From positions 1 to 30,779 of the forward strand of contig JANMPT010000061.1 in NCBI GenBank assembly GCA_031370005.1: a stretch of 30,779 nt of DNA, in the 5' to 3' direction. How positions within the stretch are numbered: position 1 is the first letter of the stretch; the number at the start of each line of letters is the position of its first letter. This stretch comes from Bdellovibrionales bacterium. GTDB lineage: Bacteria > Bdellovibrionota > Bdellovibrionia > Bdellovibrionales > Bdellovibrionaceae. Positions 17,761-27,034 of this stretch are shown here, one piece after another. Under the pieces are notes generated by a model. The model was not told the origin of the DNA. It did no database searches and saw only the letters and a program-made list of their open reading frames with translations. The position numbers and the translations under genes are program-made.

Positions 17761-18045
17761 TTAGGTGCCTTTTCCAATGGATATAATAAGCACATTTTGC
17801 GGATTTTGAAGATCATCAATTTCATAAATAATTGTGTATCCAAGTTTTGAGGCTACCTTGCGCAGGAAAACATTTGAACTCTGTGTTGCCGAACCTGACG
17901 ATGGGAAAAGCTCTAAGCGCTTTCGAACATCATCAATGTCTTTGAGATAGGACAACGTAGATTGGTGTCCTAGTGTTGTGTATATATTTGTAGCCCAAGC
18001 GATATGATTATCTTCGGCCGACTTTCGCCACCTGACGGTTGCCAT
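17761..18045 (-). CDS. Type II toxin, RelE/ParE superfamily
   Basis: 94 aa: MATVRWRKSAEDN...LELFPSSG...LRKVASKLGYTIIYEI...VLIISI; downstream of and overlapping the antitoxin gene. Confidence 0.75.
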   Translation of the reverse strand: MATVRWRKSAEDNHIAWATNIYTTLGHQSTLSYLKDIDDVRKRLELFPSSGSATQSSNVFLRKVASKLGYTIIYEIDDLQNPQNVLIISIGKGT

Positions 18046-18316
18046 CGATGAGTTCCTTTTCATGCTCGAATTCTTTTACACGAGATAAAACCATCTCAGC
18101 AAGCTGATCGACTGACTTGGACTCAACGACAGGACCTTCTTTTCTTTCATATAAAGAAAGACGTGATAAAAGGTTTAGGTAATGCTCTTGAGTCATCAAG
18201 ACTTTCACTTCGCCGCCCCGATGAAGAATCTGAATCACAGAATCGCCGGTTACCAGATCGAAGAAGTGGGCCATCTTTTCCCTCAGTTTCGAGGCTACGA
18301 CAGTTTCTCTGAACAT
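18008..18316 (-). CDS. Type II antitoxin, Phd/YefM family
   Basis: VVASKLREKMAHFFDLV...VIQILHRGGEVKVLMTQEHYLNL matches the Phd/YefM N-domain pattern; GGAGGTGA RBS before ATG 18316. Confidence 0.78.
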   Translation of the reverse strand: MFRETVVASKLREKMAHFFDLVTGDSVIQILHRGGEVKVLMTQEHYLNLLSRLSLYERKEGPVVESKSVDQLAEMVLSRVKEFEHEKELIDGNRQVAKVGRR

Positions 18317-18333
18317 AATATCACCTCCAGTGA

Positions 18334-18367
18334 AGTTGTACAACTAATAGTACAATTATTCGTACAA
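18334..18367. promoter_or_regulatory. Putative YefM-type TA operator: three GTAC-core sites at 12-bp spacing
   Basis: Perfect palindrome AGTTGTACAACT (18334-18345); GTACAA at 18338, 18350 and 18362, directly upstream of the antitoxin RBS. Confidence 0.72.
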
Positions 18368-21128: not shown

Positions 21129-21566
21129 TCACCCGCCCCCCAAAGAGTGAAAAAAATTTTGCAGAAGAGGGCCAAAAAGAAGCAGCAAAAATGCTGGAAA
21201 CTGCATCAGAAGCAGGGGGCCTAGCAGGAAAAACGGCAGCTTTGACAACTTGCGACTGATTTCGTCATGGCATGCTTCGATGGTTTCTTGTTCCAGCTGG
21301 CAAAGAAAAACATAAATACTCTCACCCCTCAAGCCACGCTCCAGTAGGTCTAAAAGACTGCGACGGTACTGAGATCTTTGTTTTTGGAGAATTTCTGTTG
21401 CTTCTAGGCCCTGATCAAACAATGTGATCCATTTTGTGACATCCCTAGCAAAGCGAGACCGGTCCTCTCGAACAAATGAGCGAATCCCACTTCTTACAGA
21501 ACTGCCGACCTCAATGCTTCGCTTTACATATGAGATGAGTTGCAAAGAGGGCGCTATGTATTCCAT
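21129..21566 (-). CDS. Short TadC-like (GspF/PilC family) membrane protein
   Basis: Helical segment followed by LSKLPFFLLGPLLLMQFPAFLLLLFGPLL, resembling the TadC C-terminal TM; overlaps the TadB-like gene. Confidence 0.55.
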   Translation of the reverse strand: MEYIAPSLQLISYVKRSIEVGSSVRSGIRSFVREDRSRFARDVTKWITLFDQGLEATEILQKQRSQYRRSLLDLLERGLRGESIYVFLCQLEQETIEACHDEISRKLSKLPFFLLGPLLLMQFPAFLLLLFGPLLQNFFHSLGGG

Positions 21567-22291
21567 TGAAACCTTTTGCCGATGACAAAAACTGTCACCA
21601 TGCCGCTGAAAAACAAAGCCCCAGAGCTTATAATCAGCCCCTTATGTTGATAAAATCCAAATTGAGTGATCATAAAAAACAACAATCCGACATAAAGAGC
21701 CGCCGAAATGACTGCTTGCAGACGAATTTGCAGACTCACCTGTCCCGACCTACGTCGAAAGTCTTCCATGATTTTGAGATTTTTTCGCAAGGACCTCAGC
21801 TGATCTGCGCATTTTGATTGTGATTTCTCAATCCGGCTCAATTCGTCAAAAAGATTTCTAAGCGACGCTGATTTCAGGCTCGCAGAAGAGTTCTCAAATA
21901 CAATTGCGTGAACTAGATTTTCCAATGAAACCCTTAGTAGGCTTGATTCTTGGTGCGACAATGTCACCAAAGACGATCGCAGAGTTTGCCCTGATTGAAC
22001 GCCGAGAATGAGATGGTCTAACATCCTCAATGTTTGTGATTGAATCAGTTTTTCTTGATATACATAAAAAAAATGCGGCAAAAACTTCAATAAAATAAAC
22101 ATCGAGCCAAAAAAAAGCCACAAAAGCATCGGGTGAAGGCTCCACATGATAAAGAAAAAGATCATAAGACATGCCAAAATGAGAAAAATCCGCGCATGAA
22201 GATTCGTAAGGCCAACATTTTGCAAAGAAGAGGCAAGAATCCGATGTGCGAAGATGAATCCGAGGCTCGTAATCAGGATCGAAACATTCAT
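21554..22291 (-). CDS. TadB-like (type II secretion system F family) membrane protein
   Basis: N-terminal TMs, LDHLILGVQSGQTLRSSL, and RRRSGQVSLQIRLQAVISAAL before two C-terminal TMs; ATG 22291 is 8 nt after GGAGG. Confidence 0.68.
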   Translation of the reverse strand: MNVSILITSLGFIFAHRILASSLQNVGLTNLHARIFLILACLMIFFFIMWSLHPMLLWLFFGSMFILLKFLPHFFYVYQEKLIQSQTLRMLDHLILGVQSGQTLRSSLVTLSHQESSLLRVSLENLVHAIVFENSSASLKSASLRNLFDELSRIEKSQSKCADQLRSLRKNLKIMEDFRRRSGQVSLQIRLQAVISAALYVGLLFFMITQFGFYQHKGLIISSGALFFSGMVTVFVIGKRFQWNT

Positions 22292-22347
22292 GAACATGAC
22301 CTCCTCACCATTAGTCCTCGCAAAAAGAGTGCCCTTGAATTTTTTTA

Positions 22348-22376
22348 TTGACGGCGTAAGTCGAATTGTGAAGACT
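22348..22376 (+). promoter_or_regulatory. Putative sigma-70 promoter for the 30-aa basic peptide
   Basis: TTGACG-N17-AAGACT preceded by a T-rich, UP-element-like tract. Confidence 0.4.
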
Positions 22377-22436
22377 TAGATTAAGAAGTAAATTGAAGCG
22401 TTAACAACAACAACGATTGCATCCTAGGAGGAGCAA

Positions 22437-22529
22437 ATGGCAAAAAAGAAAGCTACTAAAAAAGCAGCTAAAAAAACTACAAAGAAAGCTACTAAGAAGA
22501 AAGCTACTAAAAAAGCTTCTAAGAAATAG
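22437..22529 (+). CDS. 30-aa Lys/Ala/Thr-rich histone-H1-tail-like micro-protein MAKKKATKKAAKKTTKKATKKKATKKASKK
   Basis: Perfect AGGAGG RBS (22426-22431) 5 nt before ATG; 16 of 30 residues are Lys, none acidic; followed by a strong terminator. Below the ORF-track size cutoff. Confidence 0.85.
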   Translation: MAKKKATKKAAKKTTKKATKKKATKKASKK

Positions 22530-22555
22530 TTTCCTTGGTACTGACTCAGTACTTT

Positions 22556-22586
22556 AAAACCCGCATTGTAAAATGCGGGTTTTTTT
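22556..22586. terminator. Bidirectional intrinsic terminator
   Basis: AAAACCCGCATT-GTAA-AATGCGGGTTTTTTT perfect inverted repeat between the convergent micro-protein gene and MCE operon. Confidence 0.9.
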
Positions 22587-22599
22587 ATTCTTTAATGAC

Positions 22600-23196
22600 T
22601 TAGAAATAGTAAGCCGCGCCTACGGAGCCCGTAGGAACCACCATTCCGCGATGAACCTCGTCCAACAAGACGATTTCTGCAAAAAAAGATGTGCCGGCAA
22701 GATTGCCTGTTAATTCGGTATATTGAAGACCGATGGATCCAGATATAAAGTCTGTCGCAAATTGACCAGAGGACTTTTGATCCGCGTTTAAAACCTGTTC
22801 TAAAACGTCGGCTTTTTGGTAATTTCCTATACCACTTGAATTATACCAACGCGCATAACCCAGGGTTGTGTATGGTGCGATCCTATCGCCCAAAAAACTA
22901 TGCTTCCACAAAATATTTACGGAACTATAGCCAGGGCCTCCACCAACTCCTGCTAGTGCCCCATCCATGTCTTCGAAATTAATTTCAAAGTTAAGACCAT
23001 AAGAGCCTAAAGAGCCCCCGAGGGCCAGGCCCAGACCCACTTTGCGAGCTTCCCGGAGGGCAAGATTGTCTTGATAGTTGTTGTTTTCATCAACTTTAAA
23101 GACATTCGTGACGGTTGTGCTGAAATCATCAGCATAAGATGCCAGTGGCAACATAAAAACAGCCAAAATAAAAAGACGTTGTGCTAATTTATGCAT
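22600..23196 (-). CDS. Putative small outer-membrane beta-barrel protein (about 8 strands)
   Basis: Signal peptide ending ASYA; alternating amphipathic strands (VGLGLALGG, YGLNFEINF, IAPYTTLGYARW, SGSIGLQY); C-terminal GAAYYF beta-signal. Last gene of the MCE operon. Confidence 0.7.
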   Translation of the reverse strand: MHKLAQRLFILAVFMLPLASYADDFSTTVTNVFKVDENNNYQDNLALREARKVGLGLALGGSLGSYGLNFEINFEDMDGALAGVGGGPGYSSVNILWKHSFLGDRIAPYTTLGYARWYNSSGIGNYQKADVLEQVLNADQKSSGQFATDFISGSIGLQYTELTGNLAGTSFFAEIVLLDEVHRGMVVPTGSVGAAYYF

Positions 23197-24024: not shown

Positions 24025-24717
24025 TTAGTATAGATAACTGAACGCATAAGACAAAAGAAAATCAATTATAATAACTGCCATCGATCCTGCGACAACACTG
24101 TTTGTCGTTGCTCGCCCCACACCCTCTGCTCCTTCTTCACAACGAAATCCGAAATAGCAGCTAATCAATGGAATTACTGCTCCAAAGCATGCTGCCTTAA
24201 TGATCGCGAAAATTAGATCTTTAAACTGAACAAAGCGTTTCATTCCAGTAATAAACATCGCCGGTGTATAGCCGAGGTAAGAACTGCTCACAGCCATCGC
24301 GCTGAAAATACAAGTCATATTCGCAATAACCGTTAGAAACACTGCGCCCAAAATACACGCGACTAGACGAGGCATCAGCAAATAATTAACCGGATATATG
24401 CCCAGCATTTTAAGTGCATCAATTTGCTCTGTGATCTTCATGGTTCCTACTTCCGCAGCGATCCCCGCTCCGACTCTCGAGGTCAGCAGAAGGGCCGTAA
24501 CAACGGCCGCAAGTTCTCGTAAGATTAACATGGCTGCAAAACCGGGAACCATCGAATCATTTTGAATGACGATCTTCATATGAAATGAAGACTCAAGAAT
24601 CGTTACCATGGCAGCAAAGCTCACGCAGAAAACAATGATTACAAGACTGCCGTTTCCTACAAAATACAGCTGTTCGAAAGTTTCCTTCCAACGAAACCGT
24701 CTTGCTCGTTCCTTCAT
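24025..24717 (-). CDS. mlaE: MlaE/YrbE-family ABC permease B
   Basis: RELAAVVTALLLTSRVGAGIAAEVGTMKITEQIDALKMLG, GAEGVGRATTNSVV. Confidence 0.92.
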   Translation of the reverse strand: MKERARRFRWKETFEQLYFVGNGSLVIIVFCVSFAAMVTILESSFHMKIVIQNDSMVPGFAAMLILRELAAVVTALLLTSRVGAGIAAEVGTMKITEQIDALKMLGIYPVNYLLMPRLVACILGAVFLTVIANMTCIFSAMAVSSSYLGYTPAMFITGMKRFVQFKDLIFAIIKAACFGAVIPLISCYFGFRCEEGAEGVGRATTNSVVAGSMAVIIIDFLLSYAFSYLY

Positions 24718-25503
24718 CTAAAACCCTCTGACTATATGAAGAATAATTTCACCAATAAAGCTTGTCAGCCAATCTGTCACCACAATCGCAATCATCGTGA
24801 CAACAGAAGTTAAAACCACAGCACGTCCGACACCCTTTGCTCCTCCCGTCGCAAAATAGCCTTTTTGAGTGCAAATCGTGGCAAGAACTAAGCCGAAAAC
24901 AAAACATTTTACAAGGCTCCCGACAATTGAAGGAATCGTAATAATTGTGGGAACATGGCGCATATATTCTTCAGGATTCACTCCTGCGAAAAAAAAGCCC
25001 AGGAACATCCCGCCTATAATAGACATAAAAAGGCCTAAAAATAATAGAAAAAAACTCGATATAACAATCCCTAAAAAACGCGGTACGATGATTTCCTGAA
25101 TTGGATTTGCCCCTAGGCAGCGAATTGCATCTATCTGCTCAGTCACACGCATTGTTCCCAGCTCTGCAGAGGTAAAGGCCCCGATTTTTCCACTGAGCAT
25201 AAAGGCAATCAGCAAGGGTCCTACTTCGCGAAAGGTTGCACTCGTTGCTAATCCTCCCAAAAAACCTAAAGCGCCAAACTCTTTCATTTGGAGCGTAAAT
25301 TGAACGGTCATGATGGCACCAACAAAAAAGCCAGCCACCGCCGTGATGACAAGACTTTCAGTGGTCACATACCAAACCTGCTTTAAAATCAATTGCAACC
25401 GCGTTGGTCTAGAGATCATCGTCACCATGATCTCGGTGAAAAAAATAAGGCTTTTTCCAACTTCATCTGCAACTTCAATCAAACCCCGAACCATCACTAT
25501 CAT
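24718..25503 (-). CDS. mlaE: MlaE/YrbE-family ABC permease A
   Basis: REVGPLLIAFMLSGKIGAFTSAELGTMRVTEQIDAIRCLG, GGAKGVGRAV; ATGA overlap with the ATPase gene. Confidence 0.92.
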   Translation of the reverse strand: MIVMVRGLIEVADEVGKSLIFFTEIMVTMISRPTRLQLILKQVWYVTTESLVITAVAGFFVGAIMTVQFTLQMKEFGALGFLGGLATSATFREVGPLLIAFMLSGKIGAFTSAELGTMRVTEQIDAIRCLGANPIQEIIVPRFLGIVISSFFLLFLGLFMSIIGGMFLGFFFAGVNPEEYMRHVPTIITIPSIVGSLVKCFVFGLVLATICTQKGYFATGGAKGVGRAVVLTSVVTMIAIVVTDWLTSFIGEIILHIVRGF

Positions 25504-26228
25504 AACAAAGCCTCAGCCAAAAAGTCCCTCACCAGAGGAACCTGAGACTTTTTCAGCTCCTCAGGTGTGCCAATCGTGACAATTTCACCTTTATCCAACA
25601 CCACAATACGGTCAGCAATGCTCAATGCACAGTGCATGTCGTGACTAACGACAAGAGAAGTGGTTTTAAGACTGCGTGAAAGATCAAAAATAAGCTGATT
25701 TACAGCATTGGTGGTAATGGGATCTAAGCCCGTCGTGGGCTCATCAAAAAGCAAAATCTTTGGCTCTAGCGCTACTGTTCTTGCAAGACTGACGCGTTTT
25801 TGCATCCCATAAGAAATTTTCGCCGGCATCTTATCTTCAATACCGCTCAAATGAACGAGATTCAGGGCTTTTTTTACTTTCTCAGCAATTACACCCTCCT
25901 CTAGTTGATAATGACGGCGCAGTCCAAAAGCCACATTCTCATAAACTGTTAGAGAATCAAAAAGCGCTGGGTGCTGAAAAACCATTCCGCATTTTTTACG
26001 AATTGGCAGGTACTTCTCTTCACTGAGTTTGCTAACTTCTTCGCCGTCAATCCAAATCTCGCCCTCATCAGGACGTAAAAGTCCCACGATGTTTTTCAAA
26101 AGCACTGATTTGCCTGTTCCAGACATGCCCAAAATAAATAGAATCTCGCCCTCTCGGATATCAAGATTTAAGCCATTTAGAACAGCTCGGCCTCCGAACC
26201 GTTTAATAAGATTCTTAAATTGGATCAT
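25500..26228 (-). CDS. mlaF: MlaF-family ABC ATPase 2 (canonical Walker B and H-loop, degenerate signature ISYGM)
   Basis: GMSGTGKS, MVFQHPALFDSL, ISYGMQKR, LLFDEPTTGLDP, VSHD. The start could instead be GTG 26285. Confidence 0.9.
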   Translation of the reverse strand: MIQFKNLIKRFGGRAVLNGLNLDIREGEILFILGMSGTGKSVLLKNIVGLLRPDEGEIWIDGEEVSKLSEEKYLPIRKKCGMVFQHPALFDSLTVYENVAFGLRRHYQLEEGVIAEKVKKALNLVHLSGIEDKMPAKISYGMQKRVSLARTVALEPKILLFDEPTTGLDPITTNAVNQLIFDLSRSLKTTSLVVSHDMHCALSIADRIVVLDKGEIVTIGTPEELKKSQVPLVRDFLAEALL

Positions 26229-26284
26229 TGCAACATCATAGTTAGAACTTCTCTTTATTTGCAAGCGTGGATCTGCAGCAAGCA

Positions 26285-27034
26285 CTAGGCTTCTGTTAGC
26301 GGCCCAGTAAGAGAGCCTCGTATAAACTGTTGAACACTCGGATTGGAATGATTTTTTGTTTCTGCTGGCGTTCCTGTAATGATCAGTTCCTGATCCATCA
26401 CTAGAGCTATGCGATTTGCAAGCTGATAAGCGCGATTTACATCATTCGTAATTGCAACAACTGTCGAATTATTTTTTTTCTGCAAATCTAAAATTAGCTC
26501 GATAATCTTTCGTGAGGTAATGGGGTCCAAGCCCGCAGTGGGATCATCATAAAAAATAATCTCGGGATTAAGAGCTAATGCTCTAGCTATCCCGAGACGT
26601 TTTTGCATACCGCCACTAATTTCGTCAGGATAAAGAAATTTTGCATGAGCAATTCCCACGGCCTCAAGAAAAACATCGACCTTCGTTTGGATTTCATCGG
26701 AGGCAAGATCTGTCGCCTCTCTTAGAGGAAATCCAATATTTTCGCCGCAGGTGAGTGAGTCAAACAGTGCATTTTTTTGAAAAAGCATTCCAAGTTTTTT
26801 AAGGGTCTTAAGACGCTCGTTGCCGCCAAGCGTTGACCAATCTTGCTGATTGATAAAAACCTTACCTTTTCGAGGAGTTATCAATCCGGCCATGGTTTTC
26901 AAAAGTGTCGTTTTTCCTTGGCCACTTGGGCCCATTAAGACGAAAACTTCACCTGCTGGAATTTCTATTGATATGTTTTTTAATACGACCTGCGAATCGA
27001 AGCCGACTTCAATCCCTTGTAGTTTCAAAGACAT
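26285..27034 (-). CDS. mlaF: MlaF-family ABC ATPase 1 (canonical signature, degenerate Walker B DD, H-loop Asn)
   Basis: GPSGQGKT, MLFQKNALFDSL, ISGGMQKR, IIFYDDPTAGLDP, AITND. Confidence 0.9.
   Translation of the reverse strand: MSLKLQGIEVGFDSQVVLKNISIEIPAGEVFVLMGPSGQGKTTLLKTMAGLITPRKGKVFINQQDWSTLGGNERLKTLKKLGMLFQKNALFDSLTCGENIGFPLREATDLASDEIQTKVDVFLEAVGIAHAKFLYPDEISGGMQKRLGIARALALNPEIIFYDDPTAGLDPITSRKIIELILDLQKKNNSTVVAITNDVNRAYQLANRIALVMDQELIITGTPAETKNHSNPSVQQFIRGSLTGPLTEA

Follow-up and report, generated by a model that had tools for sequence, protein, structure and literature searches.

Organization of the micro-gene locus

The window, i.e., the whole 30,779-nucleotide stretch of Bdellovibrionales DNA that was analysed, carries a microprotein gene (22437-22529, plus strand) that encodes 30 amino acids and is the likely ortholog of Bd3800 of Bdellovibrio bacteriovorus. 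It is flanked by a divergent tadB-like gene (21554-22297, minus strand; T2SSF below the Pfam cut-off), which occupies the Bd3799 position and is its most constant neighbour, and by a convergent gene (22600-23196, minus strand), the last of an mla operon, which occupies the Bd3802 position and served as a synteny anchor. The convergent gene, present in 32 of 41 genomes, encodes a 198-aa protein with no Pfam or NCBIfam match; by eye, its glycine pattern and YYF end look like those of an outer-membrane beta-barrel, and its HD100 counterpart, Bd3802, has been reported to rise at 4-5 h of predation (PMC12546842). The gene order equals that of B. bacteriovorus HD100 Bd3795-Bd3807 (rows of Table S1 in PMC3627812), in agreement with the Bdellovibrio-like host supposed in the initial annotation. 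Elsewhere in the window, an mla-type operon with tandem pairs of permease genes and ATPase genes spans 24025-27034, and two overlapping small genes (111 and 100 aa) at 17761-18343 on the minus strand appear, by eye, antitoxin-toxin-like.

A sigma-70-type promoter is predicted at 22348-22376 (plus strand), with a T-tract on its 5' side, the -35 box TTGACG (22348-22353), a 17-nt spacer and the -10 box AAGACT (22371-22376). These boxes, already proposed in the initial annotation, are present in the sequence with 8 of 12 consensus matches and were not listed by the sigma-70 consensus scan, which had a cut-off of 9; their support comes from conservation. Of 51 distinct orthologous units, 50 have TTGAC at a distance of 70-134 nt upstream. 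A conserved GTC(G/A)A in the spacer (22360-22364, plus strand), whose G, T and C are kept in 46, 49 and 45 of 50 units, respectively, forms with the -35 box an imperfect palindrome, TTGAC-N7-GTCRA, which is a possible operator. A genome-wide regulon search for TTGAC-N7-GTC revealed no excess, with 19 intergenic sites against 10-20 for spacers of 5, 6, 8 and 9.

The leader contains a CA-rich unstructured element, AACAACAACAAC (22403-22414, plus strand), which is likely a translation enhancer or an RNA-binding-protein site; its AACAACA motif was found in 63 of 92 ortholog leaders (60 nt; near-duplicates counted) and in 6 of 466 strong Shine-Dalgarno starts of the same genome (45 nt). The Shine-Dalgarno sequence itself, AGGAGGAG (22426-22433, plus strand), lies within a small predicted hairpin (22416-22436, plus strand; -6.4 kcal/mol) that places AGG/GGA at the loop and resembles a CsrA site. 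Of 49 distinct leaders, 24 contained the pattern CC-N0-2-RGGA, compared with 43 of the 466 starts of the same genome, and csrA is present in the window's genome, within a flagellar operon (locus L179). Translational control through this hairpin is possible.

Between the stop codon and the terminator lies a second predicted stem-loop (22538-22552, plus strand), which orthologs retain with arms of different sequence; compared with dinucleotide shuffles, 20 of 38 distinct 3' segments had z below -1.5 (mean z -1.75). The intrinsic terminator (22556-22588, plus strand) comprises a 12-pair stem with five G-C pairs (22556-22583) followed by a T-run, and similar hairpins are also found behind orthologs. 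Since an A-tract lies on one side and a T-tract on the other, it is likely shared with the convergent gene. In the folded predicted mRNA, the two ends did not pair. Short metatranscriptome contigs of related organisms (7 runs) span the micro-gene (one stops at the terminator, another takes in the -35 box); because these runs were selected by the window stretch and may contain DNA, they were not counted toward transcription.

The microprotein and its conservation

The peptide consists of 16 K, 7 A, 5 T, 1 S and 1 M, with no acidic or aromatic residue, for a net charge of about +15.5, a pI of 11.2 and a mass of 3.3 kDa. When all ATG-started ORFs of 15-150 aa in the 3.21-Mb genome were ranked (45,997 ORFs), its lysine fraction of 53% was the maximum, tied with one 15-aa ORF, and its K/A/T/S/P fraction was the highest among the 19 K-rich ORFs listed; such a rank indicates that the ORF did not arise by chance. 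The open reading frame, its composition, the Shine-Dalgarno sequence and the terminator are exactly as first described.

A syntenic ortholog of 23-120 aa was found in 38 of 41 genomes of the order, so that the synteny expected between the tadB-like and mla genes of relatives was indeed observed. Anchoring on the convergent gene gave 30 loci in the 41 genomes, of which 27 carried a K/A/T micro-ORF with Shine-Dalgarno sequence and terminator; the tadB anchor (12 genomes, 10 loci) added nine loci, the three earlier misses among them, with one locus leaving the contig, and pattern searches supplied two more genomes. Counts from degenerate patterns are lower bounds, since the patterns missed genes that the tadB anchor later recovered. 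Among the three genomes in which the micro-gene was not seen, two (89% and 72% complete) lack the locus or end inside it, and the third (98% complete) lacks both anchors and yielded only a different 36-aa basic ORF. Within the genus Bdellovibrio, the micro-gene was present in 29 of 30 loci and, in an overlapping set, in 10 of 11 named loci, both misses being cut contigs.

Over 32 distinct orthologous peptides the composition was K 52, A 24, T 15, V 4, R 4 and S 1%, with no acidic or aromatic residue and only 0.1% proline, threonine standing in its place. Some long orthologs are R-rich, and the window peptide has no R. Changes in repeat number give lengths of 23-120 aa, while K+R stays at 47-64%; such constancy of composition at variable length is what a polyelectrolyte would show, and it suits a ligand of a fixed pocket less well. 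Synonymous and nonsynonymous changes among same-length orthologs numbered 9 and 3 (30 aa), 14 and 5 (36 aa), and 8 and 3 (39 aa), compared with a synonymous share of about 21-22% of sites (binomial p 1e-4, 2e-6 and 5e-4, respectively, in a test that ignores phylogeny and mutation bias). The selection on the peptide that codon variation among its repeat units had suggested is also seen among orthologs. The strong Shine-Dalgarno sequence and the open frame were retained across every length change, and the 30-codon ORF is a real, selected, stand-alone gene.

These observations also bear on the idea that the functional product is an RNA, such as a CsrA/Hfq-type sponge acting through the AAC/AAR repeats, or that the ORF is an attenuator leader. 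The conserved CA-rich leader, Shine-Dalgarno hairpin and 3' stem-loop, the csrA gene of the window's genome and a weak Rfam match to Thr_leader would suit such an idea, which we nevertheless regard as quite improbable given the synonymous excess in three ortholog groups and a frame and ribosome-binding site that outlast all changes of length. As for attenuation, the Thr_leader match reached 31.5 bits vs a gathering threshold of 55, and the gene beyond the terminator is convergent in syntenic loci, leaving nothing to attenuate; with no co-directional operon behind the terminator, membership among attenuator leaders was rejected.

Pfam and NCBIfam yielded no family for the window peptide or for orthologs of 95 and 120 aa, and a homology search with a 43-aa ortholog gave nine weak matches (E 0.04-7) among 7,888 candidates, which are uninformative given the low-complexity query. 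The prediction that gene callers would skip such a gene was borne out for the most part: 16 of 16 orthologs looked up were not present in a collection of 15 billion proteins, whereas Bd3800 is annotated in HD100 and the window peptide sequence is present in the ESM Atlas. There, the nearest named cluster has HC2 in 17% of its members (score 0.88; a lead only).

Expression of the likely ortholog Bd3800

Gene order, start coordinate, length and GC content make Bd3800 the likely ortholog of the window micro-gene, a call drawn from tables that give neither strand nor sequence. The micro-gene ATG of strain s4 (locus L032), mapped through the end of Bd3798, falls on HD100 position 3,670,617, the start of Bd3800, which at 132 nt and GC 0.303 corresponds to the 43-aa form found in 4 of 30 Bdellovibrio-genus loci. 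Bd3800 (NP_970506.1, 'hypothetical protein') has the same neighbours as the window gene (Bd3799 in the tadB position, Bd3802 and the mla genes) and differs in encoding 43 aa instead of 30. A literature search on 'Bd3800' returned no work on the gene, the term is not found in the main text of a 2025 preprint (10.1101/2025.09.24.678257; whole-text term search), and an open-access-weighted search for small lysine-rich or H1-like proteins of Bdellovibrio or bacteria found no description of this family.

According to the RNA-seq tables, Bd3800 reached 6,803 RPKM (887 reads) at 3 h inside prey vs 270 RPKM in attack phase, and its flanking genes had 8 and 24 reads (10 and 133 RPKM), while none of the eight attack-phase-specific sRNAs listed lies at the locus (PMC3627812). 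Hence the transcription supposed for the micro-gene is found for its likely ortholog, which is high at 3 h of growth in prey. The histone Bd0055 rose from 10.8 RPKM in attack phase to 5,041 at 3 h, the 98th percentile in growth phase; provided that both values come from one data set, Bd3800 would rank within roughly the top 2%. HU went from 14 to 768 RPKM. Ribosomal genes are likewise high at 3 h, so that late genes cannot be told apart by this time point alone.

One alternative is a small unrecognised ribosomal protein plugging an rRNA cavity. Very small basic ribosomal proteins exist (bTHX, bS22, eL41), and the microprotein is tiny, basic and, through Bd3800, highly expressed in growth. However, no ribosomal gene lies near the micro-gene, and a length of 23-120 aa set by repeat number is hard to fit into a fixed rRNA pocket. 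Furthermore, in the published arrays, Bd3800 was not induced at 30 min (1.0-1.5x, p 0.45) and stood at 0.78-0.80x in host-independent growth (p 0.05), whereas among the ribosomal-protein rows listed 21 of 23 were up at least 2x at 30 min and 23 of 23 were up in host-independent growth (1.5-73x), and Bd0055 and HU were up 4-5x in the latter; the flat Bd3800 signal could come from poor probes on the A-rich repeat, and recovery of short transcripts and probe quality may differ between studies (PMC2797640). A sorted RPKM sheet, which appears to represent host-independent growth, places Bd3800 in row 1,996 and Bd0055 in row 2,891 (PMC10627809). Regulation via this inferred ortholog, in which Bd3800 did not follow ribosomal proteins, thus speaks against a ribosomal-type gene; together with the absence of a fixed length it led us to reject membership among small ribosomal proteins, and we consider the ribosomal alternative improbable.

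A cationic membrane-active peptide, directed against prey or serving exit, would agree with the high positive charge, the predator context and the envelope genes nearby (tad-like, mla). No export signal or signal peptide was seen on inspection of the 30-aa peptide, which has a GRAVY of -1.74, a hydrophobic moment of 0.11 at 100 degrees and no hydrophobic face; its likely ortholog is not induced at prey entry, and the envelope genes are encoded on the opposite strand, with different neighbours in their place in other lineages. On these grounds, this role seems very improbable.

Bd3800 was found neither in an attack-phase proteome sheet nor, by term search, in the searchable part of the supplement of a proteome time course (PMC12546842). 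Its absence is expected, since the longest tryptic fragment measures 3 aa in the window peptide and 3-5 aa across 32 orthologs, and it accords with the earlier suggestion that trypsin-based proteomics would not see such a product.

Relation to known basic proteins

Chlamydial Hc2 (hctB, PF07382) is similar to the microprotein in its basic pairs spaced by A/T/V and in a repeat number that varies while the frame is kept, and its hosts, like the predator, have a condensed non-replicating form; as reported, expression of Hc1 and Hc2 comes late, and both cause compaction of the nucleoid in E. coli (PMC2848022). In contrast, Hc2 has 165-237 aa, pentamers with two basic residues and a conserved non-repeat C-terminus (PMC2848022) and Hc1 has a dimerisation domain, whereas the microprotein has 30 aa (orthologs 23-120), is all repeat in KKxx/KKKxx units and is about 50-60% basic. 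The PF07382 profile matched neither the peptides nor any protein in the window's genome, and since length and repeat plan also differ, membership in the Hc2 family was rejected.

The C-terminal domains of AlgP/PhaF and of histone H1 are K/A-rich, acid-free and of low complexity, as is the microprotein, in which, however, the tail makes up the entire product, hardly any proline is present and no folded targeting domain occurs. Linker histone H1 shares the Lys/Ala-rich acid-free composition (K 52%, A 24%, no D/E in the microprotein), but its globular winged-helix domain is absent from this 30-aa repeat, which has no Pfam match, and membership was likewise rejected. Protamines are arginine-dominated small proteins; with no R in the window peptide and 4% over 32 orthologs, this family was discarded too. 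By the features tested, the microprotein is outside the Hc2, H1 and protamine families. Its likeness to Coxiella ScvA and Hq1 lies in small size and basicity, by analogy and not by sequence comparison, and ScvA is presumably not a K/A/T repeat. Both Coxiella proteins are reported to bind DNA and to be enriched in the condensed-chromatin form (PMC4766238).

Distribution of similar micro-genes and fused tails

A start-pattern search matched 86 of 201 genomes of the phylum, and 90 matched places were examined; the pattern selects for such starts, and look-alikes are grouped by it, not by common descent. Outside the order, 18 stand-alone loci of 12 families (15-129 aa) were found in other neighbourhoods, mostly with a terminator. 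In metagenomes, at least 104 of 122 ORFs from at least 120 stretches (DNA GC 27-69%) were stand-alone, of which at least 16 show a window-type neighbour, a lower bound because 40 loci have little flank; at least 14 loci share another setting, adjoining a D-Ala-D-Ala ligase and/or a HEAT-cyclophilin gene. The presence of stand-alone look-alikes in many non-syntenic contigs indicates that the gene type is not tied to the predatory life cycle, which weakens a predator-specific reading.

The same N-terminal repeat is fused to folded domains. Among 13 scanned proteins it precedes SWIB in two (PF02201, E 1.5e-30 and 6e-29), HU in one (PF00216, E 1.9e-9) and fumarase in one (PF05681), and it stands before a histone fold at locus L072 (PDB 9qt0, E 2.5e-10; 8cmp/8fvx, E 0.004); by eye, tails also occur on CTP-synthase-like and GroES-like proteins. 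The tails of the phylum start with MAKKK(A/T), as do the micro-gene products. In the genome that contains the window, the histone lacks a tail and a SWIB-like protein carries one. Histone-fold proteins with MAKKK-type tails were also noted in metagenomes and in further families of the phylum (L072, L077, L136, L140, L171, L221), the comparison with solved structures covering L072 only. Bacterial histones with positively charged tails have been described (PMC11390915).

Proposed role as a free histone-tail-like polycation

By analogy with these tails, the microprotein may act like an H1-type lysine tail, and we estimate a probability of about 0.5 that it is a free polycation of this kind that helps condense the nucleoid. 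The micro-gene would be translated at a high level into a small polycation for which no structure is predicted. Its likely target is the backbone of DNA of any sequence, where it would do unattached what the lysine/alanine tails do as parts of SWIB, HU and histone-fold proteins. Strong transcription of Bd3800 at about 3 h in prey would coincide with division of the filament and re-compaction of chromosomes; division at about 3 h (PMC3627812) and re-compaction before division (PMC8445325) have been reported, as has DNA binding in vitro by KPAA-repeat peptides (PMC9239181). Alongside small cations and Bd0055, a histone without a tail, the peptide may partially neutralise charge and bridge neighbouring duplexes, and it may be carried over into attack-phase cells. 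A role in chromatin is favoured by the occurrence of the tail on three nucleoid folds and by transcript levels that peak close to division and re-compaction.

The peptide would be a helper and not the sole compactor. By our estimate, neutralising 10-30% of the genome takes 4 × 10^4 to 1.2 × 10^5 copies, and 90% of phosphates about 3.6 × 10^5 copies, or 10-15% of cell protein at an assumed cell size and protein density. Since so many copies per cell would be needed, a helper role is expected, and the reading of a protamine-like sole compactor loses ground.

A polycation of this kind would bind RNA, ribosomes or polyphosphate as readily as DNA, and it may instead be a general polyanion buffer that mainly coats RNA, idle ribosomes or polyphosphate and not chromatin in particular, so as to form condensates or dampen translation while the attack-phase cell is quiet. 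The peptide has no feature that selects DNA over other polyanions, tails are found on metabolic enzymes too, and micro-genes are widely distributed outside the window-type locus; moreover, Hc2 is reported to bind RNA better and to repress translation (PMC2848022), and the lysine repeats of AlgP to organise polyphosphate granules (PMC9239181). Against this stand the repeated fusion to three nucleoid folds and an expression peak that fits re-compaction. We consider such a buffer rather unlikely as the main role, and both roles could operate together.

In its stronger form, the chromatin reading would make Bd3800 and its orthologs the missing condensing factor of the attack-phase nucleoid, a 'histone tail in trans' made late in prey and working with Bd0055, and missed so far because trypsin destroys the product; we offer this form tentatively, as possible but doubtful. 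If true, oligolysine microproteins would form a widespread class in bacteria that annotation has missed, and Bd3800 would be the member of it that is open to genetics. In any case, the micro-gene is one conserved, highly transcribed candidate invisible to standard proteomics, and it makes an open question of nucleoid condensation testable in a model organism, as deletion, tagging and Hi-C are routine in Bdellovibrio and the peptide is cheap to synthesise. A result on function there would give a first function to a micro-gene class common in metagenomes.

Additional observations

Alongside the micro-genes, a family of proteins of 90-115 aa was noticed, which are K/A-rich at the N-terminus, turn Gly/Ala/Ser-rich in the middle and end in EE (L102, L104-L112, L115, L126, L132, L160, L161); for the two members scanned, Pfam gave nothing above cut-off. 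Among 15 pattern matches in viral contigs, one was a stand-alone peptide. Finally, at L232 and L273 two such micro-genes follow each other in tandem on a single contig, encoding 70 and 49 aa and 45 and 40 aa, respectively.
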